DNA from: a virus
Taxonomy: Duplodnaviria > Heunggongvirae > Uroviricota > Caudoviricetes
IMG/VR virus record: IMGVR_UViG_2718218129_000003
Length of the DNA stretch: 38,372 nt
Strand: one strand, 5' to 3'
Under the pieces are notes generated by a model. It was given only the letters and a program-made list of their open reading frames with translations. It did no database searches and was not told the DNA's origin. Below, in pieces: positions 1-38,372 of the stretch (the first letter of the stretch is position 1; every line of letters starts with the position of its first letter). Both the position numbers and the translations under genes were made by a program.

Positions 1-258
1 ATGCAAACCGTTATTTTTGGTCGTTCGGGTTGCCCTTACTGTGTGCGTGCAAAAGATCTGGCTGAGAAATTGAGCAATGAACGCGATGATTTTCAGTATC
101 AGTATGTAGATATTCGTGCGGAAGGGATCACTAAAGAAGATCTACAACAAAAGGCAGGTAAACCCGTAGAAACCGTGCCGCAGATTTTTGTCGATCAGCA
201 ACATATCGGCGGCTATACCGATTTTGCTGCATGGGTGAAAGAAAATCTGGACGCCTGA
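1..258 (+). CDS. grxA: Glutaredoxin 1
   Basis: 85-aa ORF with the CPYC redox motif (GCPYCVRAKDL). Sequence is recognisable as E. coli GrxA; synteny with ybjM and ybjL supports this. Confidence 0.9.
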   Translation: MQTVIFGRSGCPYCVRAKDLAEKLSNERDDFQYQYVDIRAEGITKEDLQQKAGKPVETVPQIFVDQQHIGGYTDFAAWVKENLDA

Positions 259-267
259 TCGTCTGAC

Positions 268-300
268 AAGCCCTCGCGTTGAGGGCTTTACTGATTTTTT
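268..300. terminator. Hairpin terminator between convergent grxA and ybjM
   Basis: Stem AAGCCCTC / GAGGGCTT with a 5-nt loop, followed by a T-rich run (TTTACTGATTTTTT). Confidence 0.5.
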
Positions 301-665
301 CTGTGCTGTGGTTTAAACAAACTACTGATAAATAAGAAACACAGTGCCCCCAGCGCACACCAGAACACCGCGCTTAGTAACCATGCCAGCTCTTGCCAGA
401 ATGAGCGCGTCGGTGAAAAAAACAGCCGCATAATGAGCATCGAACAGGGTGCCGCCAGCATTGCGCCAAACAGAGGTTTCAGGACTTCTCTACGCTGTGA
501 AAAGAAGCTGGCGACTGCTCCAGGAAGAATGAAAAATAGCAAGCCGATTTCAGGATGCCCGGCAGCCCGAAAAGCGCCTTTCATGTGCGTCGCCAGAAAA
601 AGGCACACCACAATGAAGAGGACAAAACAGCAGATTGCCCCCGCCCAACGTTGTTTATGTTTCAC
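288..665 (-). CDS. ybjM: Inner membrane protein YbjM
   Basis: 125-aa hydrophobic multi-helix ORF. Size and position between grxA and ybjL match the E. coli arrangement. Confidence 0.7.
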   Translation of the reverse strand: MKHKQRWAGAICCFVLFIVVCLFLATHMKGAFRAAGHPEIGLLFFILPGAVASFFSQRREVLKPLFGAMLAAPCSMLIMRLFFSPTRSFWQELAWLLSAVFWCALGALCFLFISSLFKPQHRKNQ

Positions 666-934
666 TCGTTCCTCCTGACACTGCGTCTATCGAACACATT
701 TTTCGCCAGTGTGGCGTTCAGTAAGATAAAGCCGCTTCGCATTCCATGCTAATATAGGCCAACGCAATTCATATAGCCGTTGATACCTAATGTGATTACA
801 CTAGTAAAATATATTGTTACTTTACTATCGTTTAGGTGCGCTGAATGAATCTGCGCCCTGAATTCTGGTAAAAAACATTATCGTAAATTACCATTTCTTT
901 CAACAGCTTACTAGTAAACAAGAAGTTAGCCTCC

Positions 935-2620
935 GTGAATATAAACGTCGCCGAATTGTTAAATGGGAATTACATTCTGTTATTATTTGTGGTCCTCGCG
1001 CTTGGGCTATGTCTCGGAAAGTTACGACTTGGTTCGATCCAACTGGGTAATTCCATTGGCGTTTTAGTCGTATCGCTGTTATTAGGCCAACAACATTTCA
1101 GCATTAACACCGATGCGCTTAATCTTGGCTTTATGCTGTTTATTTTCTGCGTCGGGGTCGAAGCCGGACCGAACTTTTTTTCCATTTTTTTTCGCGATGG
1201 GAAAAATTACCTAATGTTAGCACTGGTGATGGTTGGCAGTGCGCTGGTGATCGCCTTAGGGTTAGGTAAGCTGTTTGGCTGGGATATTGGCCTGACGGCC
1301 GGTATGTTAGCAGGCTCTATGACGTCGACACCGGTTCTGGTCGGTGCTGGCGATACACTGCGTCATTCCGGCATGGAAAGCAGGCAGCTCTCACTGGCAC
1401 TGGATAATCTGAGCCTCGGGTATGCCTTAACCTATTTAATCGGTCTGGTGAGTTTGATTGTTGGTGCGCGTTACTTGCCGAAATTGCAGCATCAGGACTT
1501 ACAGACCAGCGCCCAGCAAATCGCCCGCGAACGTGGCCTGGACACTGATGCCAACCGTAAGGTTTATTTACCGGTGATCCGCGCCTATCGCGTCGGCCCG
1601 GAGCTGGTGGCCTGGACCGACGGCAAAAATCTGCGTGAACTGGGTATTTATCGACAAACCGGCTGCTACATTGAACGTATTCGACGTAACGGGATTCTGG
1701 CAAATCCAGACGGTGATGCCGTGCTACAAATGGGCGATGAAATAGCGTTGGTAGGCTATCCCGACGCCCATGCCCGACTCGATCCCAGCTTCCGTAACGG
1801 TAAAGAAGTTTTCGATCGTGACCTTCTCGACATGCGTATCGTCACTGAAGAAGTGGTCGTTAAAAACCATAACGCTGTAGGTAAACGTCTCGCACAACTG
1901 AAGTTGACCGATCACGGTTGCTTCCTTAACCGCGTCATTCGTAGCCAGATTGAGATGCCGATAGATGACAACGTCGTGCTTAACAAAGGTGACGTTTTAC
2001 AAGTCAGCGGTGATGCCCGTCGCGTAAAAACCATCGCCGATCGCATCGGCTTTATCTCGATTCACAGCCAGGTCACTGACCTGCTGGCATTTTGCGCCTT
2101 CTTTGTTATTGGGCTGATGATCGGGATGATCACCTTCCAGTTCAGCACATTCAGTTTCGGCATGGGGAACGCTGCCGGGTTGTTATTCGCCGGAATTATG
2201 CTGGGCTTTATGCGTGCTAACCACCCGACCTTCGGTTACATTCCGCAAGGTGCATTAAGCATGGTGAAAGAGTTCGGCTTGATGGTGTTTATGGCAGGCG
2301 TTGGTCTGAGCGCCGGTAGCGGTATTAATAACGGCCTGGGCGCGATTGGCGGTCAGATGTTGATTGCCGGATTAATTGTCAGTCTTGTGCCCGTGGTTAT
2401 CTGTTTCTTGTTCGGTGCTTATGTATTGCGAATGAACCGCGCACTGTTGTTCGGCGCAATGATGGGCGCACGCACCTGCGCGCCGGCAATGGAGATCATC
2501 AGTGATACAGCTCGCAGTAACATCCCTGCGCTGGGCTACGCGGGCACCTACGCAATCGCCAACGTCCTGCTGACGCTGGCAGGGACAATCATCGTCATGG
2601 TATGGCCAGGATTAGGATAA
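935..2620 (+). CDS. ybjL: Putative transport protein YbjL (AAE/YidE-YbjL family, two TrkA-C domains)
   Basis: 561-aa ORF with a GTG start, membrane domains at both ends and a soluble middle region. N-terminus [16 protein letters not shown] is recognisable as YbjL. Confidence 0.85.
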
Positions 2621-2732
2621 AACTGAAGTTGCCCTGAAAATGAAATTTTTTTGCACAACCGCAGAACTTTTCCGCAGGGCATCAGTCTTAATTAGTGCCA
2701 CTGCTTTTCTTTGATGTCCCCATTTTGTGGAG

Positions 2733-2778
2733 CCCATCAACCCCGCCATTTCGGTTCAAGGTTGATGGGTTTTTTGTT
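2733..2778 (+). terminator. Rho-independent terminator downstream of ybjL
   Basis: 10-bp stem CCCATCAACC / GGTTGATGGG with a 17-nt loop, followed by TTTTTTGTT. Confidence 0.5.
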
Positions 2779-2866
2779 GCCTGTTAGATTACTCTCGATA
2801 AAATAATCACTTACTAGCCATATCAGCCTGCAATGGCGACAAAGTGGCGACAGAGAGAGAAAGAGC

Positions 2867-3388
2867 GTGTCCTTATCATTTAGTGACTCAGTAGCAATCG
2901 TCGGAATCATTGTAGGAATTTTGTGTATTGTTGTGGGATTGCCCGCACTTCTAACATTTATCCCACAACGGAAAGAGGCAAAAAGATTACGCAGGGAAAG
3001 ATATGCACAAATTCTAAAAGGTAAAAGTTGGAATAACCTTGGAGTTAACCATGGATTTCCTGAGCCATCACTGGACATACGAATTAACACCGTAGATAAC
3101 GCAGGTACACTTCAAGGTGAGATTATCAACTGCCAAAGTAATGTTATGGATTTAGATAAAATAACATTCCATATCAATGGTAAGCTAACCGATAAAGGAA
3201 CTGCATCAATAACACTATGCACTGCTATCGGATGGCGCCAAGTACCGGTGGGAGTTGCGAAATTACGTTATCGCGAAAAAGATGACACACTAGATTTCAT
3301 CTATCTGCATGATCATAAATTCAATCCAACCTTATCATGGGAACTAAGCCTCCCTCGGTTTACTACCTACGGACTAGTTGGCTGCTAA
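2867..3388 (+). CDS. Hypothetical membrane-anchored protein (N-terminal TM helix), AT-rich cargo gene at the prophage edge
   Basis: 173-aa ORF with a GTG start after a purine-rich stretch. N-terminal hydrophobic helix VAIVGIIVGILCIVVGLPALL followed by a basic stretch. Visibly more AT-rich than flanking host and phage DNA. No family recognised. Confidence 0.5.
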   Translation: MSLSFSDSVAIVGIIVGILCIVVGLPALLTFIPQRKEAKRLRRERYAQILKGKSWNNLGVNHGFPEPSLDIRINTVDNAGTLQGEIINCQSNVMDLDKITFHINGKLTDKGTASITLCTAIGWRQVPVGVAKLRYREKDDTLDFIYLHDHKFNPTLSWELSLPRFTTYGLVGC

Positions 3389-3509
3389 CTCTTTGTATAT
3401 GGTTCATGCCAGTCTGAACCCAAAAGGTAAATGGCTGCATATCCCTTTCTCTGAATTAAACCAGTAAAAACCCTCCAGCGGTGGGTTAATATTAGTAAGC
3501 TAATTGTTC

Positions 3510-21754: not shown

Positions 21755-22588
21755 TCAGCAATTGGTCAGAGTGTCAGCGGGGGCGTTACCGCCTGTTGCA
21801 CGCTGGCGGTAGTCCTGGCGGCTGTCTTCATGGCTCAGCTTATTCACCAGTTCGTTAAAGGCGGTTTGCTGCTCCTGCAGAGCAGTCTCCAGCTCAGACA
21901 GGCGTTCTTCCTGCTCAGACAGGGATTTTTCGGTGCGTGCGCTCAGGTTCTGCTGCTCAGTGGCGACCAGCTCCACGGCTTTATGCACATCAGAGAACCG
22001 GGCATCGTCTGACTGCTCTTTTTTGGTGAACAGCGCCGTGACGCGGGCAAACAGGGACGGTTTGTCATCCTGGATTTCTTCCAGTTCGATCACCGTTTCC
22101 TCTGCAGCGGTAAAGAGATTGGCGGGATTCTGCTTGCGGTTTGCCAGCGGGTTATGGGCTGCACTGGCGCTGAATGTCAGCATTTCCGTACCCAGACTGG
22201 CAGGGTCATCAGTGGCAGCCAGGCCGACCAGGTAGGCTTTGCCCGTATCAGCGAACTTCGGGCTGACTTCCATAGAGGTGAATAATTTCTGGCCTTTTTT
22301 CACCAGTTCCACCAGGGACTCCGTTGGCTCAACATCGGCATACAGCGCCATCTTGCCTGCCAGCGGACCTTCCGTGATTTCTTCAGCAAACAGCGCCGTC
22401 ACCTTGCCGTAGCGGTTAAAGGTGCTGTCCGGCAGATAAGACTTGATGTGCTCAAGGTTAATCAGCGCGGTATACACCGCCGGGTTGTAGCTGGCTGCCA
22501 TCTGTTCCAGCCATTCACGCTGGATTTCGCGTCCGTCGGTGGTGGCACCTTCCACCCCGATGCGAAAACGCTTTGCTTTCACTGTCAT
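21755..22588 (-). CDS. O: Capsid scaffolding protein O
   Basis: 277-aa ORF with an acidic, coiled-coil C-terminal region. Confidence 0.85.
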   Translation of the reverse strand: MTVKAKRFRIGVEGATTDGREIQREWLEQMAASYNPAVYTALINLEHIKSYLPDSTFNRYGKVTALFAEEITEGPLAGKMALYADVEPTESLVELVKKGQKLFTSMEVSPKFADTGKAYLVGLAATDDPASLGTEMLTFSASAAHNPLANRKQNPANLFTAAEETVIELEEIQDDKPSLFARVTALFTKKEQSDDARFSDVHKAVELVATEQQNLSARTEKSLSEQEERLSELETALQEQQTAFNELVNKLSHEDSRQDYRQRATGGNAPADTLTNC

Positions 22589-25600: not shown

Positions 25601-26266
25601 TTAAAGATCCGGATCTACAGGCTCATGATATAGATTTACAGGGTAATGAATAACTTCATAATTCAGTTGAGTAACTGTGTGAACATGCTGGCTATAAAAA
25701 ACCAATGGATTTTTTTGACAAGGAGTAATCGTTATAGATTTACAGGCATGAATTCTTGGTGCGAATTTATCTAAATGCGCCTTCCAGTTGCTCATCATTT
25801 CATTACATTTTCTATTACGAGTATAGATAATCAATCCACCACTTGCGCTGTCTACGGTCCCTGTACTATATCGTTCAGTGAGTTGAGCATACCCTTTAAA
25901 TAAATAACTATATGAAGATGTATGTTTTTTGGCTTCGCCATGCCAAATATAATCCTTTAGTTTTATTGTAATATCACAATGTCCGCGCTGATTATTTTCA
26001 TGAAATGCTTCAATGCCCATATCTTTATTTTTGATATTGGCCAATAAAATTAAAGTAAGCTGATCTTCTGTTAAATCGAAGTTTAACTTATTTGAATTCT
26101 CTTCTATTTCCTTTACAGCAGAATCAAGTTCAATCCTGACAAATTGTTTGAAATTATCGTACGATTGAAGTGCAAATCTAACACGAGTAATAGAAGCATT
26201 AATACGCTGAAGAAAAATATCATTATCAATATCAGCCAAACTCATTGCTGCAGACATTTTTAACAT
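25601..26266 (-). CDS. Hypothetical protein, third gene of an AT-rich three-gene cargo operon
   Basis: 221-aa ORF sharing one nucleotide with the upstream gene. No recognised family. Contains a D-x13-E-x-K pattern (HCDITIKLKDYIWHGEAKK). Confidence 0.6.
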   Translation of the reverse strand: MLKMSAAMSLADIDNDIFLQRINASITRVRFALQSYDNFKQFVRIELDSAVKEIEENSNKLNFDLTEDQLTLILLANIKNKDMGIEAFHENNQRGHCDITIKLKDYIWHGEAKKHTSSYSYLFKGYAQLTERYSTGTVDSASGGLIIYTRNRKCNEMMSNWKAHLDKFAPRIHACKSITITPCQKNPLVFYSQHVHTVTQLNYEVIHYPVNLYHEPVDPDL

Positions 26267-26712
26267 CAGATAATATCCTTTGATTTAGATTCATCTAATG
26301 TAAAAAAAGGAAATACGAATGACTTATAGTCATACATAAGCTCCCCTGTAAATGGGTTTACTAAAGATTGACTGATTTCCGCCTCAATAACTTCCTCTAT
26401 TTCAAGTTCTACAGGGTCATGAAAATCATCAATGAACCAATAATTGAGTTTTAAAAAATCAACCTTTGGGCTACAAAGAATTTGTATGGCCGGATAGATA
26501 ACCTGCTCATACGTTTCTGGCTGTAAAACCTTATTATAACCACCAGCTATATTAAATAAATCCTTATAACTTAAAGCTATATTTGATGATTTTTTAGCCC
26601 TTGCCTCGATTTCATCGTACAAATAGCAAGCTAACGCCCCAATTTCAGGGCGTTCTGCACACATTTCTTTGATGATCTTGGGCATATCACCATCCTTCAT
26701 TGCTGACTCCAA
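26266..26712 (-). CDS. Hypothetical acidic protein, second gene of the cargo operon
   Basis: 148-aa ORF whose start abuts the stop of the 371-aa gene. No recognised family. Confidence 0.6.
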   Translation of the reverse strand: MESAMKDGDMPKIIKEMCAERPEIGALACYLYDEIEARAKKSSNIALSYKDLFNIAGGYNKVLQPETYEQVIYPAIQILCSPKVDFLKLNYWFIDDFHDPVELEIEEVIEAEISQSLVNPFTGELMYDYKSFVFPFFTLDESKSKDII

Positions 26713-27819
26713 TTATAATATCAGCTTTGTGAGGGTTTCGAAATCATCTTTGGATATACATTTACTTAATATAGCATAGTTAACAGGAGAGCAACTACTC
26801 CCTCCTAGATGCCTGCGGAGTGTTCCCGGAATGATAAGCTCTACGTTATCCGCTAATTGCAGTTTTGGATTATTTCTATCAACTCTAATTCCAATACGAT
26901 ACAAACCAATACTGCCTACTGCTTTGATGCCTTCCTTATTAAACAAATCATCACGTAAGTCTTTAGTGGCCACATTTTTCTTTTCTTTATGCGTAGTCCC
27001 CTCATTCGTCAAAAATGACAAATCAAAGACTTTATAGCTTAATTTTGAATAAGGCAATGAATTTTGTTTGAAAATTGGCTCAATTAACGGATAAAAATCT
27101 TTTTCCGATGATTTAAATTCATAACCGACATGATTATACAATTCACGAATAATGTTACTCTTTGCAAAAGTAACATTATCACCAATAATATTACCATTAG
27201 TATCTACCAAAACATGAATTTTATTAGTAACAGAGTCTAATATACAGACATCAAAACATTGTCGCTTTTCTTTTCGCTTTGCAATAATTTCATCAAACTG
27301 CTTGTATTGCGCAAGTGCTGACGGGGGAATTTTTTCTCTTACAACTAATTCTCTGACAGATGAAAAAACAAGTATTGACTGGGTGTTTTGAATAGAATAA
27401 TTAACAAGTTCAGGTTGATTTTTTACAGCATTTTGCAATTGGACATCATCAAGGATCGAATCAACCAATAATGATGGTTGATTCATCAAATTCCATTGAA
27501 AACTAAATCTGTCATTTAGTGTTTTAATTACACTATTATCTACAGTCAAACTAAATATTGCTTTTTCACCATAAACGACCTGACCAAAAATTAGGTCATT
27601 TACGTTTGCCATAATGCCATCAAACTTTTGCCTATCTTTACTTTTAAGATCAATGAGGCTTTCTAGTATTTTTTCGTTTGTTGCTTCACGCCCCCTACCT
27701 GTTGGCAGCCCTAAAGACGCAATAATTGGCCTTGCAACGTTCCATGTGAAACGTTCAGTTAAGGTCAAGATCGACTTTAACTCAGACTCAGAAAGCACTA
27801 CTGGGACACTACCTGTCAT
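26713..27819 (-). CDS. Hypothetical protein, first gene of the cargo operon
   Basis: Start placed at the ATG preceded by AGGTG (the ORF track starts at GTG 27828). About 368 aa, no Walker A motif, no recognised family. Confidence 0.6.
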   Translation of the reverse strand: MTGSVPVVLSESELKSILTLTERFTWNVARPIIASLGLPTGRGREATNEKILESLIDLKSKDRQKFDGIMANVNDLIFGQVVYGEKAIFSLTVDNSVIKTLNDRFSFQWNLMNQPSLLVDSILDDVQLQNAVKNQPELVNYSIQNTQSILVFSSVRELVVREKIPPSALAQYKQFDEIIAKRKEKRQCFDVCILDSVTNKIHVLVDTNGNIIGDNVTFAKSNIIRELYNHVGYEFKSSEKDFYPLIEPIFKQNSLPYSKLSYKVFDLSFLTNEGTTHKEKKNVATKDLRDDLFNKEGIKAVGSIGLYRIGIRVDRNNPKLQLADNVELIIPGTLRRHLGGSSCSPVNYAILSKCISKDDFETLTKLIL

Positions 27820-27978
27820 AACTTGCACCTAGTCATCCAAAAAGCAATAAGAATTTGCTCTTGTCTTAATTTATCCTTCGATACCTAACAAATTACCTCA
27901 ATGTTGAAAAAATTTGCAAGCCATTTGCTTCTAAAAAGCGACCTTACTCAGAGTGTTACAAAACTAAGCGAGCGCGCG

Positions 27979-28549: not shown

Positions 28550-29521
28550 CTAACTTCCCTTTATTTTTAGTTCGTTAAAAATATCTTCGATTACCAATCC
28601 ATTTTTAATTAAATGCTGCACAATATTTTCATATTCTTTGAAATTGTCAATATGCAAGCCATGATCTTTTTCTTTAGCAATTCTCGTGATCACATGTACG
28701 CTATCTGTATAATCAATCTTATTTTTAAGAGCATTGAGCAAACTTATACTTGGATTTAAAGTTGAGATTAGTTTACCAAACTCGGTTTGTAACTCTTTGG
28801 ATTGATGAGTATTAATATAATCTTCAATAAAAGCATCAAAATCTCCTTGCAACTCAACTTTAAGGTTTGCTATATCCTTCATAATATTTTCTAACTCAGA
28901 AGAGTATGGCCGACCATGTTTAAAATCGAATAAAAAAAGATTTGCTTTCTCAATACATTCGCAAATATAAAAAACTGTATAAAGGGAATATTTTTGCTTA
29001 ACTTTTAATTTTCCATAGGCGTAGTGAACCAAAAGATGCTTAGCATTAATAACATTTTTATTTTTTGAAAGTTGATTGTTAGTTGCAGGCGGATAAATTA
29101 CCACATCAACATTATCTAAATTTTGAAAAGTTTTTAAAATAAGAGCCTCAACCTTATTCCAATCGAGGCCCCCATTACCACAGCCTAAAGGTGGTATTGA
29201 TATTGATGTAATTTTTTTTTCATCTATAATTTTTGCTAAAGATTCAAGGCCTTGCGAGATAAAATCATATGTTGATTTTTTTCTCCAACTATCTTTAGTG
29301 GGAAAGTTTACAATTATTTTTCCCTTTTCCTCTACAATTAAAACCTGTCCAATTTTCATTGTACCAGTGGCGCATGCTCTCTTATAAACTTCGAAATTAT
29401 AGGGAAAAGTTTCTTTAAAAGCCAAAGCAATACCCTTTCCCATGACTCCTTGGCAGTTTACAGCATTCACAAGAGCTTGCGATGTAGAGTTTAGAAGATT
29501 TCCGCTTGCATACTTAATCAT
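28550..29521 (-). CDS. darG: DarG-like antitoxin (N-terminal macrodomain ADP-ribosyl hydrolase)
   Basis: Macrodomain motifs GNLL…ALVNAVNCQGVMGKGIALAFK…NFPTK…IPPLGCGNGGLDW. Directly downstream of the DarT gene. Confidence 0.8.
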   Translation of the reverse strand: MIKYASGNLLNSTSQALVNAVNCQGVMGKGIALAFKETFPYNFEVYKRACATGTMKIGQVLIVEEKGKIIVNFPTKDSWRKKSTYDFISQGLESLAKIIDEKKITSISIPPLGCGNGGLDWNKVEALILKTFQNLDNVDVVIYPPATNNQLSKNKNVINAKHLLVHYAYGKLKVKQKYSLYTVFYICECIEKANLFLFDFKHGRPYSSELENIMKDIANLKVELQGDFDAFIEDYINTHQSKELQTEFGKLISTLNPSISLLNALKNKIDYTDSVHVITRIAKEKDHGLHIDNFKEYENIVQHLIKNGLVIEDIFNELKIKGS

Positions 29522-29525
29522 AGAA

Positions 29526-30107
29526 TTAGAACATATAAGTGTTGATCGTTATCAATATACTTAATCCTTGTTGTTTTATCAACCCTTCAACATATTTTTT
29601 TTCGTTATCATTTTTGACAAAGATGCAATGGAAATTTTTCGGCTCGACCGTTACACTTGATAAACACTCAGCCATACATACAGATTTGCATTCTGCATTT
29701 TTATAATCCCTTATATTCATTAGCTCCCAGTCAATTTGGGCCATTCCTTGTTCATAATCTAAGAGGTCTATAACAGAACTGGTGGATAATGGATGTTTAG
29801 GGATAACTTTCCAACCATTTTCTTTGGCAAATGCCCGACAAACCGAAATAATACAAAATGATTTTTCCTTATGATCTTTCAGGACTCTTCCATCAAATGG
29901 ATTCTTAGTAAAGAAATGAAAAGGAACCATTGTTTGCAAATTTAATGCTTCGCGACCTGTTATTATTTCACCGTCGGCCACATCAACAAACTCACCTTTT
30001 ACTGATGCACGAGATCTTAATCCTGTATCTAAAATACTAGGTAGATTATCCATACATGTTAAATGATAGAGAAGATACTGATCTTCAATTCTTTTCCTTT
30101 CGCTCAT
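29526..30107 (-). CDS. darT: DarT-like DNA ADP-ribosyltransferase toxin (DUF4433)
   Basis: N-terminal LLYHLTCMDNLPSILDTGL, plus VPFHFF and a C-terminal AEC motif. Tightly linked upstream of the macrodomain gene. Confidence 0.8.
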   Translation of the reverse strand: MSERKRIEDQYLLYHLTCMDNLPSILDTGLRSRASVKGEFVDVADGEIITGREALNLQTMVPFHFFTKNPFDGRVLKDHKEKSFCIISVCRAFAKENGWKVIPKHPLSTSSVIDLLDYEQGMAQIDWELMNIRDYKNAECKSVCMAECLSSVTVEPKNFHCIFVKNDNEKKYVEGLIKQQGLSILITINTYMF

Positions 30108-35465: not shown

Positions 35466-35981
35466 TCACAGCAAACCAAATGAAGCACCGAGGCCAGTCA
35501 CGGTATCAACTGCACTCGCCATCGCAGGATTAGCCTGTAAACGGGCCTGCAATGAAACAGCCGCCAGCGCCATCAGTCGTGTTACAGAGTTAATGCTGCT
35601 GATAGCATCACGACGACCGGCACAGGTTTTTACATCGCCAGACACCGCACCTGCAGCAACACGCCCGATCTCTGCGGTTGCACTCATGACGTAATGTGGC
35701 AGTTTCTCTTTTGCCACCTCATTAATCGGTACACATGGCAGACAATGAATCTGTGCCAGAAAACCATCTACCAGCGTTGAATCTTCAGTCAGATCGGTAA
35801 GCAGCCAGATTTCTGGTGCGGTTAATAAATGAGGCTGAGCTGGGTTCAGCTTGTTCCGCAGAATCTGCACATTCATGCCTGCACGTTCTGCCAGTTGCAC
35901 CAGATTGTGGCGCAGTGCAAATGCACGACAGGCTTCATCAAAATGTGGATGTTTGGAAACTTGGTAATCAAACATGGTCAA
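35466..35981 (-). CDS. cII: CII-like transcriptional activator (186 CII family)
   Basis: 171-aa ORF with an HTH region ([16 protein letters not shown]). Second gene of the rightward early operon after the Apl-like gene, as in phage 186. Confidence 0.6.
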
Positions 35982-36007
35982 TGCCTCTGATGTATTTCAG
36001 AATCGAA

Positions 36008-36229
36008 CTAATTAAGGTTTAGATTGCATTCTGAAAGCGCATCAACGGTCATTGCTGCTATGTTGATCATCACTTTTTCGCGTTTTTTATCTTTGCGCAG
36101 ACGGTGACGGATAAGGCGTCCATCAGCCAACATGTCATTGATGGTATCGATGGATAGCCCTGTCAGCTCGCTATAGCGTTCAATAGTCACATGAGGCGTG
36201 GTAAGAGTGATTGAAATGTTAGGTCTCAT
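36008..36229 (-). CDS. Apl/Cox-like small DNA-binding protein (excision and lytic-switch regulator)
   Basis: 73-aa basic protein, first gene divergent from the repressor gene. Confidence 0.5.
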
Positions 36230-36348
36230 GATGCAACATTCCTCGTTTAATGATGATTAATCAGGACGAATACGGATCGTTTGTATTTTGTGAACACCAT
36301 AAACATACGATCGCACGGTGAAATCGTCAAGATAAAAGTTCACTTGGA
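36230..36348. promoter_or_regulatory. Immunity switch region (operators and promoters for the repressor and lytic operons)
   Basis: 119-bp AT-rich gap between divergent Apl-like and CI-like genes. Confidence 0.45.
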
Positions 36349-36924
36349 GTGACCATGAATTTGGAGAAAGGCGGACGAGGCGCCATAGAGCGCATGGTAG
36401 AAGCTTATGGATTCAAGACTCGACAGGCGTTGTGCGATCATTTAGGAATCTCTAAAAGTACACTCGCCACACGCTACATGCGTGACTCATTCCCAGCAGA
36501 ATGGGTAATCCAGTGCGCCCTTGAAACAGGCACCTCGCTTAATTGGCTCACAACCGGGCATGGTTCAAAGCAAACTTCAGGTAATACAAATACTATGGAA
36601 GTTGCTAAATATGTATTATCTGATGGGGCCTTGTGTGAAGACGGTTTTTATATTTTCGATAGAGAATTTCTACCGTCGGCATTCAAGAATCTTTTTGTAA
36701 TCACAGATAATAATTCTGAATTTATTTGTGATAAGGAATTTGATGATATACGTGATGGTAAATGGGTAATAAGTATTGATGGCGAAATAACGATCCGTGA
36801 CATTACTCGTTTACCCGGTGGAAGAATCTTCGTCGAGGGTGGAAACAGAGCCTTTGAATGTAAGATAGAAGACATTGAAATAATTGGTAAAATTATAAGT
36901 TTAACAGTCAAGTATGTTAAATAG
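36349..36924 (+). CDS. cI: CI-type immunity repressor (186 CI-like)
   Basis: 191-aa ORF with an N-terminal HTH (TRQALCDHLGISKSTLATRY) and a C-terminal oligomerisation-type domain. Upstream of int in the same orientation. Confidence 0.7.
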   Translation: MTMNLEKGGRGAIERMVEAYGFKTRQALCDHLGISKSTLATRYMRDSFPAEWVIQCALETGTSLNWLTTGHGSKQTSGNTNTMEVAKYVLSDGALCEDGFYIFDREFLPSAFKNLFVITDNNSEFICDKEFDDIRDGKWVISIDGEITIRDITRLPGGRIFVEGGNRAFECKIEDIEIIGKIISLTVKYVK

Positions 36925-36939
36925 TACCGGGAGGAAATT

Positions 36940-37131
36940 ATGCTTGGTAAGGTATTTTTTGTGGTTTTGTCATGTTCTTTGTTATTAAACCCACTAGCTA
37001 CCTATGCTAGAAATTATCCCTGCTCAGGGAAAAAGGGAGGTGTTTCTCACTGTACCTCTGATGGCAAATTCGTTTGCAATGATGGAACTATTAGTAAATC
37101 CAAAAAAATCTGTACTAAAAACTCACGATAA
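36940..37131 (+). CDS. Small secreted Cys-rich hypothetical protein
   Basis: 63-aa ORF with a strong GGGAGG ribosome-binding site, an N-terminal signal peptide (…NPLATYA) and four Cys in the mature part. AT-rich. Confidence 0.45.
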
Positions 37132-37319
37132 CTTTTGCTTTTATATCTGCGCCTAAAATAAAAATGAGCCACAGGTTAACCGCAAAAGTTACATGATCAC
37201 ATAGCAAAAAGAATAGCCTACTTCATTATGGCTTCAGTGAGATGTATGGTCGCAGGATTTCATACATTGACACTGGTTATACATACAGTAAAAATGCTCT
37301 CTATTGGAGGGCATTTTTT

Positions 37320-38372
37320 ATGGCTGTACGAAAACTCACCACAGGAAAATGGCTTTGCGAATGTTACCCCGCCGGACGTAGTGGGCGTCGTGTGCGTAAA
37401 CAATTCGCCACCAAAGGCGAAGCACTGGCTTTTGAGCGTCACACGATGGAAGAAACCGAAGCAAAGCCCTGGCTAGGTGAATCAGTGGATCGTCGAACAC
37501 TGAAAGACGTGGTTGAGCTATGGTTCAAACTACATGGTAAATCACTGACTGCTGGGCAGCATGTCTATGACAAATTGCTGCTGATGGTTGACGCTCTGGG
37601 CAATCCCCTTGCAACTGATCTAACCTCTAAAATGTTTGCCCACTATCGAGATAAACGCCTGACAGGTGAGATCTACTTCAGCGAGAAATGGAAGAAAGGA
37701 GCAAGCCCGGTCACCATTAACCTGGAGCAAAGCTATCTAAGTAGTGTTTTTAGCGAACTATCCCGCCTGGGCGAATGGTCGTATCCGAACCCACTGGAGA
37801 ACATGCGAAAATTCACCATCGCAGAAAAAGAGATGGCATGGCTTACCCATGAGCAGATTGTTGAATTACTGGCTGATTGCAAACGTCAGGACCCAATTCT
37901 GGCACTGGTAGTTAAGATATGCTTAAGCACAGGCGCACGCTGGCGAGAAGCCGTAAATCTTACTCGTTCACAGGTGACCAAATACCGAATTACCTTTGTA
38001 AGAACGAAGGGGAAGAAAAACAGAAGCATCCCTATCAGTAAAGAGCTTTACGAAGAGATCATGGCGCTTGATGGGTTCAATTTCTTCACAGACTGCTATT
38101 TTCAATTTTTATCCGTGATGGAAAAAACGTCTATCGTGCTCCCTCGCGGTCAACTCACACACGTTCTGCGCCATACGTTTGCGGCGCACTTCATGATGTC
38201 GGGTGGAAACATTCTGGCCTTACAAAAAATTCTCGGACACCACGATATAAAAATGACTATGCGTTACGCACATCTGGCACCGGATCATCTGGAAACGGCG
38301 CTCCGTTTCAATCCTCTGGCAACGCTGCCAAGTGGCGACAAAGTGGCGGCAGCGGTTGGCATTACCCCGTAA
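37320..38372 (+). CDS. int: Tyrosine integrase (P2/186 family)
   Basis: Start chosen at MAVRKLTTGKW with a GGAGG ribosome-binding site. C-terminal catalytic region has R…HVLRHTFA…LGHHDIKMTMRYAHL, the R-H-R-Y signature. Stop codon is at the window end. Confidence 0.85.
   Translation: MAVRKLTTGKWLCECYPAGRSGRRVRKQFATKGEALAFERHTMEETEAKPWLGESVDRRTLKDVVELWFKLHGKSLTAGQHVYDKLLLMVDALGNPLATDLTSKMFAHYRDKRLTGEIYFSEKWKKGASPVTINLEQSYLSSVFSELSRLGEWSYPNPLENMRKFTIAEKEMAWLTHEQIVELLADCKRQDPILALVVKICLSTGARWREAVNLTRSQVTKYRITFVRTKGKKNRSIPISKELYEEIMALDGFNFFTDCYFQFLSVMEKTSIVLPRGQLTHVLRHTFAAHFMMSGGNILALQKILGHHDIKMTMRYAHLAPDHLETALRFNPLATLPSGDKVAAAVGITP

Follow-up and report, generated by a model that had tools for sequence, protein, structure and literature searches.

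A YdcA-family cargo gene directly behind the cI repressor gene of a 186-like Escherichia coli prophage

A reading frame of 63 codons between the repressor and integrase genes of a prophage raises two questions: whether it is a gene at all and, if it is, what its product might do in a lysogen. The frame lies in a stretch of 38,372 nucleotides (IMG/VR record IMGVR_UViG_2718218129_000003), hereafter called the window, and an earlier note on this DNA had proposed that it specifies a small secreted protein, possibly an exclusion or host-interaction factor. A P2/186-like prophage takes up the window from about 3.4 kb rightward to its end, and the left end (1-3400) is host chromosome carrying ybjM (288-665) and ybjL (935-2620). 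Related genomes have rcdA/ybjJ directly adjoining the prophage int, which places the element in the ybjL-rcdA interval. The lysis-lysogeny switch forms the right end of the window, where the genes and the parts of the reading frame are arranged as follows:

35466-35981, minus strand: cII
36008-36229, minus strand: Apl/Cox-like gene
36355-36924, plus strand: cI repressor gene of the 186/HP1 type (PF07022 and PF16452; RefSeq coordinates)
36928-36933, plus strand: Shine-Dalgarno sequence GGGAGG, 6 nt upstream of the ATG (direct reading of the sequence)
36940-37131, plus strand, stop codon included: YdcA-family gene for a precursor of 63 aa (ORF list, NF007463, phrog_6000, PF27300 and pN/pS)
36940-37008, plus strand: predicted Sec signal peptide, residues 1-23, of which 5-16 form the hydrophobic core (putative cleavage between TYA and RN)
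37009-37128, plus strand: predicted mature four-cysteine basic domain of 40 aa (4.3 kDa, pI 9.7, net charge +7)
37320-38372, plus strand: tyrosine integrase gene, int (PF24624 and PF00589; RefSeq coordinates)

The reading frame and its family

The frame opens with the ATG at 36940 and closes with the TAA at 37129-37131, and the same coordinates are called in RefSeq for identical loci. Its GGGAGG, placed 6 nt before the start codon, bears out the strong ribosome-binding site that had been ascribed to it. The N-terminus of the product is laid out in n, h and c regions like a Sec signal peptide. When 29 homologues are aligned, the alanine at -1 is invariant, while the remaining leader is highly variable and the domain that follows is nearly invariant, a pattern from which we infer cleavage after Ala23 at an A-x-A type site. 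All four cysteines of the mature part (C28, C38, C46 and C58) are invariant in this alignment, as are P27, S29, K32, G33, G34, F44, D48, G49, S52, S54 and K55; a fifth cysteine, C12, falls within the leader and is not conserved among the homologues. In a larger alignment of 150 sequences these positions are either invariant or conserved to at least 90%, and every one of these residues is present in the window protein. Layout and conservation thus agree with the earlier description of a signal peptide followed by a roughly 40-aa mature part with four cysteines. AF2 models of the protein (pLDDT 77-79; 79 for the mature domain) predict a short beta-hairpin and loops.

The product matches the NCBIfam model NF007463 with 114.6 bits against a curated cutoff of 93, residues 5-63 covering profile positions 1-58 of 58, and the PHROGs family phrog_6000 with E = 3e-34, which together argue that the frame is more than a chance ORF. 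A precomputed Pfam label assigns it to PF27300, 'YdcA'; the local copy of Pfam-A predates this entry and gave no match for the ORF. In RefSeq, identical loci carry the name 'hypothetical protein' in older records and 'YdcA family protein' in newer ones. The exact protein is already in public databases and is ordinary as a sequence feature; the earlier note had not placed it in this family. The equivalog model for K-12 YdcA, NF007462, is matched below its cutoff (68.5 bits against 118, E = 4e-19), and by these scores the product is a prophage-borne paralogue within a catalogued family rather than the orthologue of the K-12 protein. K-12 YdcA (57 aa; PF27300, NF007463/PRK10040) is a predicted periplasmic protein of unknown function (PMC11340327). 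It shares with the window protein a predicted signal peptide and the four-cysteine domain PCSGxKGGxxHC...FxCxDGxxSxSKKxC, and differs in context, since the window gene is prophage-borne and stands directly after cI under what would be the lysogenic promoter.

A profile search of 1.84 billion representative proteins recovered 466 clusters at 50% identity with E <= 0.001, and a second profile search, in a collection at 90% identity, recovered 721 proteins. The domain is almost invariant across Enterobacterales, Moraxella, Haemophilus and betaproteobacteria, with a mean net charge of +3.4 in the family domains against +7 in the mature peptide of the window protein. The family also has chromosomal members, namely K-12 ydcA and the Moraxella and Herbaspirillum loci; the flanks displayed for Moraxella bovoculi and Herbaspirillum consist of ordinary cellular genes and include none of phage type, and the neighbours in the Herbaspirillum locus are devoid of recognizable domains. 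In Moraxella and Acinetobacter phages the homologues lie among head and tail genes, outside the lysogeny module, so the family as a whole is not tied to exclusion. No conserved partner gene was found for it, the gene orf1(S) of Haemophilus phage HP2 and the downstream gene in Moraxella being unrelated to each other.

The comparison of alleles points firmly to purifying selection. Between the window and BL21 we counted 11 synonymous and 2 non-synonymous changes, and for more divergent pairs among E. coli alleles, which are up to 7% apart in DNA, pN/pS is 0.03-0.1. The only amino-acid changes among the alleles are N17S and A20T in the leader and R24K, which affects the first residue of the mature part; the cysteine domain is invariant across the E. 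coli alleles compared. The cassette occurs, at 93-100% identity, in 589 of 5426 complete E. coli genomes including E. coli B/BL21 (the cI type of the window is found in 647 genomes), and it is retained in the degraded prophage remnants of BL21 and ETEC4068. The frame is also intact in all of the 80 most similar copies retrieved from IMG/VR, a selection that makes this count for little; the matches there are near-identical copies of the same prophage and hence add no diversity. In the phage genome collection, none carries the E. coli gene at a coverage of at least 80%; the matches there come from Moraxella, Acinetobacter, Haemophilus and Pseudomonas phages and are distant homologues. It is close to certain that the frame is a real, conserved gene.

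The interval between cI and int

A gap of 15 nt separates the start of the gene from the cI stop codon on the same strand, and its place is the one that had been given, between cI and int on the lysogenic strand. The further expectation that 186-like prophages have a small ORF at this position is untrue for phage 186 itself: there the cI stop and the int start share position 22433, with no ORF between the two genes, and the small orf69 is found downstream of int. Relative to 186, the window has about 395 bp of additional DNA between cI and int. As for base composition, the GC content is indeed low across the ORF and the spacer behind it (0.35-0.37, against 0.45-0.51 in int), as had been remarked, but this is no property of the ORF as such. 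The C-terminal half of cI is also AT-rich (0.33-0.34), and a single low-GC tract at 36600-37300 (0.33-0.37) takes in the cI C-terminal domain, the ORF and the spacer, which suggests a history common to the YdcA gene and this half of cI.

Each of the eight distinct E. coli locus types inspected has a YdcA gene that starts 15-23 nt behind the cI stop codon, with cI alleles that go down to 84% DNA identity and with differing Apl partners. The loci of the most divergent cI group (L014, 5001-6529; L105, 3559-5086) hold a second YdcA paralogue, about 67% identical and with a different leader, which is followed by a KAP-family NTPase of 443 aa that matches PDC-S20, a candidate defence family, with E = 1e-171. 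The Haemophilus phages HP2 and S2 have an unannotated YdcA-family ORF of 60 aa that overlaps the cI stop codon (TAATG). In HP2 (2944-3126 of locus L001; 2489-2671 of NC_003315, minus strand) its product consists of the leader MKKLISTVLIASSFFMVANMADA and a 37-residue remainder, and the next genes in order are orf1(S), whose secreted product has a tRNA_anti-like (OB-fold) domain, and int. The CI protein of the window is 33% identical to that of 186 and 32% identical to that of HP2, and the YdcA proteins of the window and HP2 are 51% identical. The linkage of cI and YdcA is thus conserved from the E. coli prophage clade to a Haemophilus phage.

Where int is the same and cI is a different one, the gap of the relatives is filled by other cargo, namely PD-Lambda-1 in phage vB_EcoM-813R9, a protein of 323 aa in CFT073 and one of 349 aa in Klebsiella phage 4LV2017. 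The gap between cI and int is a cargo site in P2-related prophages, and a hotspot at this position has been described for K139-like Vibrio phages (PMC9122126). The window resembles such cargo or defence hotspots in that its relatives share int together with the promoter and hairpin next to it (see below), the gap being occupied by PD-Lambda-1, the PDC-S20 KAP NTPase or proteins of unknown nature. It differs in that YdcA is the constant first gene after cI, to which other cargo is added downstream. It is close to certain that a 186-like E. coli prophage carries the ORF as a cargo gene ('moron'). Its product matches no defence family of PADLOC-DB 2.0 at E <= 0.01.

Between cI and the ORF no terminator-like site was predicted on the plus strand. 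Behind the ORF the following elements were delineated:

37132-37266, plus strand: AT-rich spacer with a long-range stem, AACUUUUGC...GCAAAAGUU, which is not a canonical terminator; no plus-strand terminator-like site
37267-37295, plus strand: promoter-like TTGACA-17-AAAAAT ahead of int, shared by every cargo variant compared
37290-37317, plus strand: hairpin with a U-run directly before the int ATG (dG -17.5 kcal/mol, z = -6.45)

A long-range inverted repeat, AACTTTTGC...GCAAAAGTT, occupies 37131-37191, just past the ORF stop, and has no U-run; the fold of the spacer region at 37120-37325 has z = -4.97. Irrespective of the cargo, some 60 bases immediately ahead of int are conserved. The stem of the hairpin is maintained through compensatory changes (GCTCTCT/GGAGGGC, GCCCTC/GAGGGC and GTCCTC/GAGGAC), the 813R9 and L014 loci included, and the ribosome-binding site of int lies within its 3' arm. 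The hairpin looks like a terminator-like or sequestering element, and the promoter-hairpin module as a whole (37267-37319) like a means of keeping int uncoupled from the lysogenic transcript. An Rfam scan of 35900-38372 returned nothing relevant. The record of phage 186 annotates a lysogenic promoter, pL, that drives cI-int. The lysogenic transcript of the window prophage would cover cI and the YdcA gene and would either stop at the hairpin or have int made untranslatable there, and transcripts from the int-proximal promoter, which would start inside the hairpin, would escape it. Given the distance of 15 nt from cI, the lack of a predicted terminator between the two genes and the placement of the hairpin only after the ORF, expression of the ORF in the lysogen can reasonably be expected, and cI and the ORF are probably co-transcribed.

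A likely structural relative and fusions to nucleases

A Foldseek search of the PDB with a model of the mature part retrieved as its top match chain AN of 7MUC/7MUD (7muc_AN), the Legionella protein Dis2 (Lpg0823), with a probability of 0.96, E = 0.13, a TM score of 0.64 and 38% identity, the next match having a probability of 0.06. The comparison with viral predicted structures returned nothing credible. Profile comparison with Dis2 gave E = 1.4e-4 with the leader included and 0.026 for the 35-residue domain freed of its signal peptide, and hhalign against the two Dis2 lobes gave probabilities of 81% and 70%. In the profile search of the PDB with the mature part, LDL-receptor class A modules and lysozyme were set aside as compositional matches of cysteine and glycine, at a level at which Dis2 also appeared; weak matches to protease inhibitors (E = 0.45) were discarded for the same compositional reason. 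Each lobe of Dis2 bears the motif of the YdcA domain, as CCSKMGGINYC..GRLVCNNGFYS and GGV...GLVLCNDGSIS. Family members with two repeats bridge the YdcA and Dis2 sequences, and P0228, a Dis2-like metagenomic protein, carries PF27300. As far as predicted models allow, a Dis2 lobe is the only credible structural relative of the ORF product, and the Dis2 lobes are likely to be homologous to the YdcA domain, on statistics that are modest for so short a domain.

Dis2 adjoins the outer membrane in the Dot/Icm core complex (PMC8486379); it has no known function, is dispensable and has been described as Legionella-specific and free of obvious homologues (PMC12716638). It differs from the window protein in having two lobes and five disulfides and in being part of a secretion machine, whereas the window protein is a single domain with four cysteines. 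The prophage itself has no type IV or type VI secretion-system genes.

Among 34 longer family members, six have a nuclease after the leader and the YdcA domain (three with Endonuclease_NS, two with SNase and one PLD-like), and one further member, P0118, is fused to a VasL domain of type VI secretion. Additional SNase and Endonuclease_NS fusions came from the search of the 90%-identity collection. The fusions are represented by P0116, P0220 and P0305 for SNase, by P0172, P0164 and P0319 for Endonuclease_NS and by P0180 for the PLD-like type, and proteins with two or three tandem YdcA repeats by P0079-P0083. The three fused nuclease families are mutually unrelated, and the YdcA domain stands directly behind the predicted signal peptide. 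Such an arrangement fits a role in anchoring or localisation equally well as one in DNA binding.

The linkage of cI and YdcA (with the unannotated HP2 gene), the likely homology to Dis2 and the recurrent nuclease fusions were not found described in the literature searched, and we offer them as leads rather than as results. They provide handles on the YdcA family through its context, and the linkage, the Dis2 likeness and the fusions make its function open to test. As the first gene after cI in this prophage clade, and likewise adjacent to cI in HP2, the gene is predicted to yield its product in every lysogen, a prediction that is easy to test. The shared fold and motif, if they reflect homology as is likely, would moreover connect the family to a component of type IV secretion that is structurally solved and functionally an orphan.

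Possible roles of the product in the lysogen

The reading that we prefer runs as follows. Transcription from the lysogenic promoter would take in the YdcA gene along with cI, and a strong ribosome-binding site of its own would serve for translation. Export by Sec would be followed by cleavage after Ala23, and oxidation in the periplasm would turn the product into a strongly cationic mini-domain of 40 residues with two disulfides. This mini-domain may act as a small binding module near the inner face of the outer membrane, with a polyanion (DNA or envelope phosphates) or an envelope machine as its ligand. The lysogen phenotype would then be seated at the envelope, most plausibly as interference with incoming foreign DNA or phage, that is, superinfection exclusion. 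The idea of a binding module draws on the net charge of +7, the invariant GxKGG and SxSK, the nuclease fusions and the Dis2 neighbour. That of exclusion draws on the position of Glo in Vibrio phage K139, on PD-Lambda-1 and PDC-S20 at the same site and on the OB-fold neighbour in HP2. While the gene, the family and the context are close to certain, the ligand and the phenotype are guesses; taken whole, the chain from a lysogen-expressed cargo gene through a periplasmic binding module to interference with incoming DNA or phage is put forward tentatively, as a plausible reading that we would stop short of calling probable.

An exclusion or host-interaction role, as the earlier note had suggested, is possible, and its best support is the positional precedent of Glo. 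The K139 gene is located between cI and int, and its record annotates the product as periplasmic and concerned with phage exclusion. The two genes are alike in their cI-int position on the lysogenic strand, in belonging to related phage families, and in the signal peptide and periplasmic location of their products (both predicted for the window protein). Glo differs in its length of 137 aa and in lacking the four-cysteine motif, so that the resemblance is one of position and possibly of role. Homology between the two was ruled out (BLASTP E = 0.17).

A bolder version of the binding module would make the YdcA/Dis2 mini-domain a small cationic periplasmic 'DNA trap', binding DNA or phosphate under the outer membrane and coupled to the repressor gene by temperate phages of the P2/186/HP1 group, so that in each lysogen it would block entry of the DNA of superinfecting phages, of conjugative DNA or of transforming DNA. 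In secreted nucleases it would act as a tether to the substrate, and in Legionella it would have become part of Dot/Icm. We consider this a long shot. If it were true, it would represent a new, very small, single-gene class of entry-level defence, and would provide a function for the orphan YdcA of K-12 and for Dis2.

The main alternative to the binding module that interferes with incoming DNA is a fitness factor, which like chromosomal YdcA would aid the envelope under acid or organic-acid stress, the prophage supplying an extra, constitutive copy. In K-12/W, ydcA is reported to be acid-induced under the control of YdcI, and its deletion rendered E. coli W sensitive to 300 mM 3-hydroxypropionate (PMC7642389). 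The prophage protein has the whole conserved domain of the K-12 type, as the NF007462 match indicates, and the persistence of the cassette in defective prophage remnants is in keeping with a benefit of this kind. However, the 3-hydroxypropionate phenotype is a single observation and is fully suppressed by deletion of yieP (PMC7642389), the prophage copy falls into a paralogous subfamily by its score against that model, and the explanation accounts neither for the nuclease fusions nor for the tight linkage to cI. We regard it as unlikely, though not negligible.

Another possibility is an adaptor or inhibitor that docks on an outer-membrane lipoprotein, a secretin-type complex or a phage receptor, and changes the activity of this envelope machine without binding nucleic acid. 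Here the analogy is with Dis2, the only credible structural neighbour, which works through protein-protein contacts near the outer membrane and binds DotC, DotD and DotK; the VasL fusion points the same way, as does the UniRef name of the identical protein, 'Conjugal transfer protein', an automatic label of unknown basis. Against such an adaptor, the domain is near-invariant from Enterobacterales through Moraxella and Haemophilus to betaproteobacteria, for which a universal small ligand is a better fit than lineage-specific partners, and the prophage carries no genes for type IV or type VI secretion. We would not expect an adaptor to be the answer, though it deserves some weight.

That the gene is a passenger, not selected for any part in the phage life cycle, and hitch-hiked with the AT-rich C-terminal segment of cI would fit the low-GC tract that spans this half of cI, the ORF and the spacer together, and the fact that phage 186 works without such a gene. 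The low pN/pS and the invariance of the mature domain argue otherwise, as do the intactness of the ORF in all loci inspected and its adjacency to cI, which E. coli and Haemophilus phages share despite an identity of only 32% between their cI proteins; we consider a mere passenger quite improbable. Lastly, a lipoprotein exclusion factor of the Cor/Llp type lipidated at Cys12 (VLSC), or a secreted pro-peptide of the arbitrium kind, is very improbable: FVVLSC loosely resembles a lipobox and a small, predictedly secreted product is encoded beside a repressor gene, but Cys12 lies only 12 residues from the N-terminus with more hydrophobic residues and the conserved A-x-A type site after it, most homologues have no leader cysteine (the ground of conservation on which the Cor/Llp reading was rejected), and the conserved part is a folded four-cysteine domain that recurs in nuclease fusions and on chromosomes rather than a signalling peptide.

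Elsewhere in the window, three ORFs at 25601-27828 have no Pfam or PADLOC match. They lie beside a toxin-antitoxin defence pair on the minus strand, DarT (29526-30107) and DarG (28550-29521), which is placed in the classical P2 hotspot, with the portal gene on one side and the replication genes on the other.
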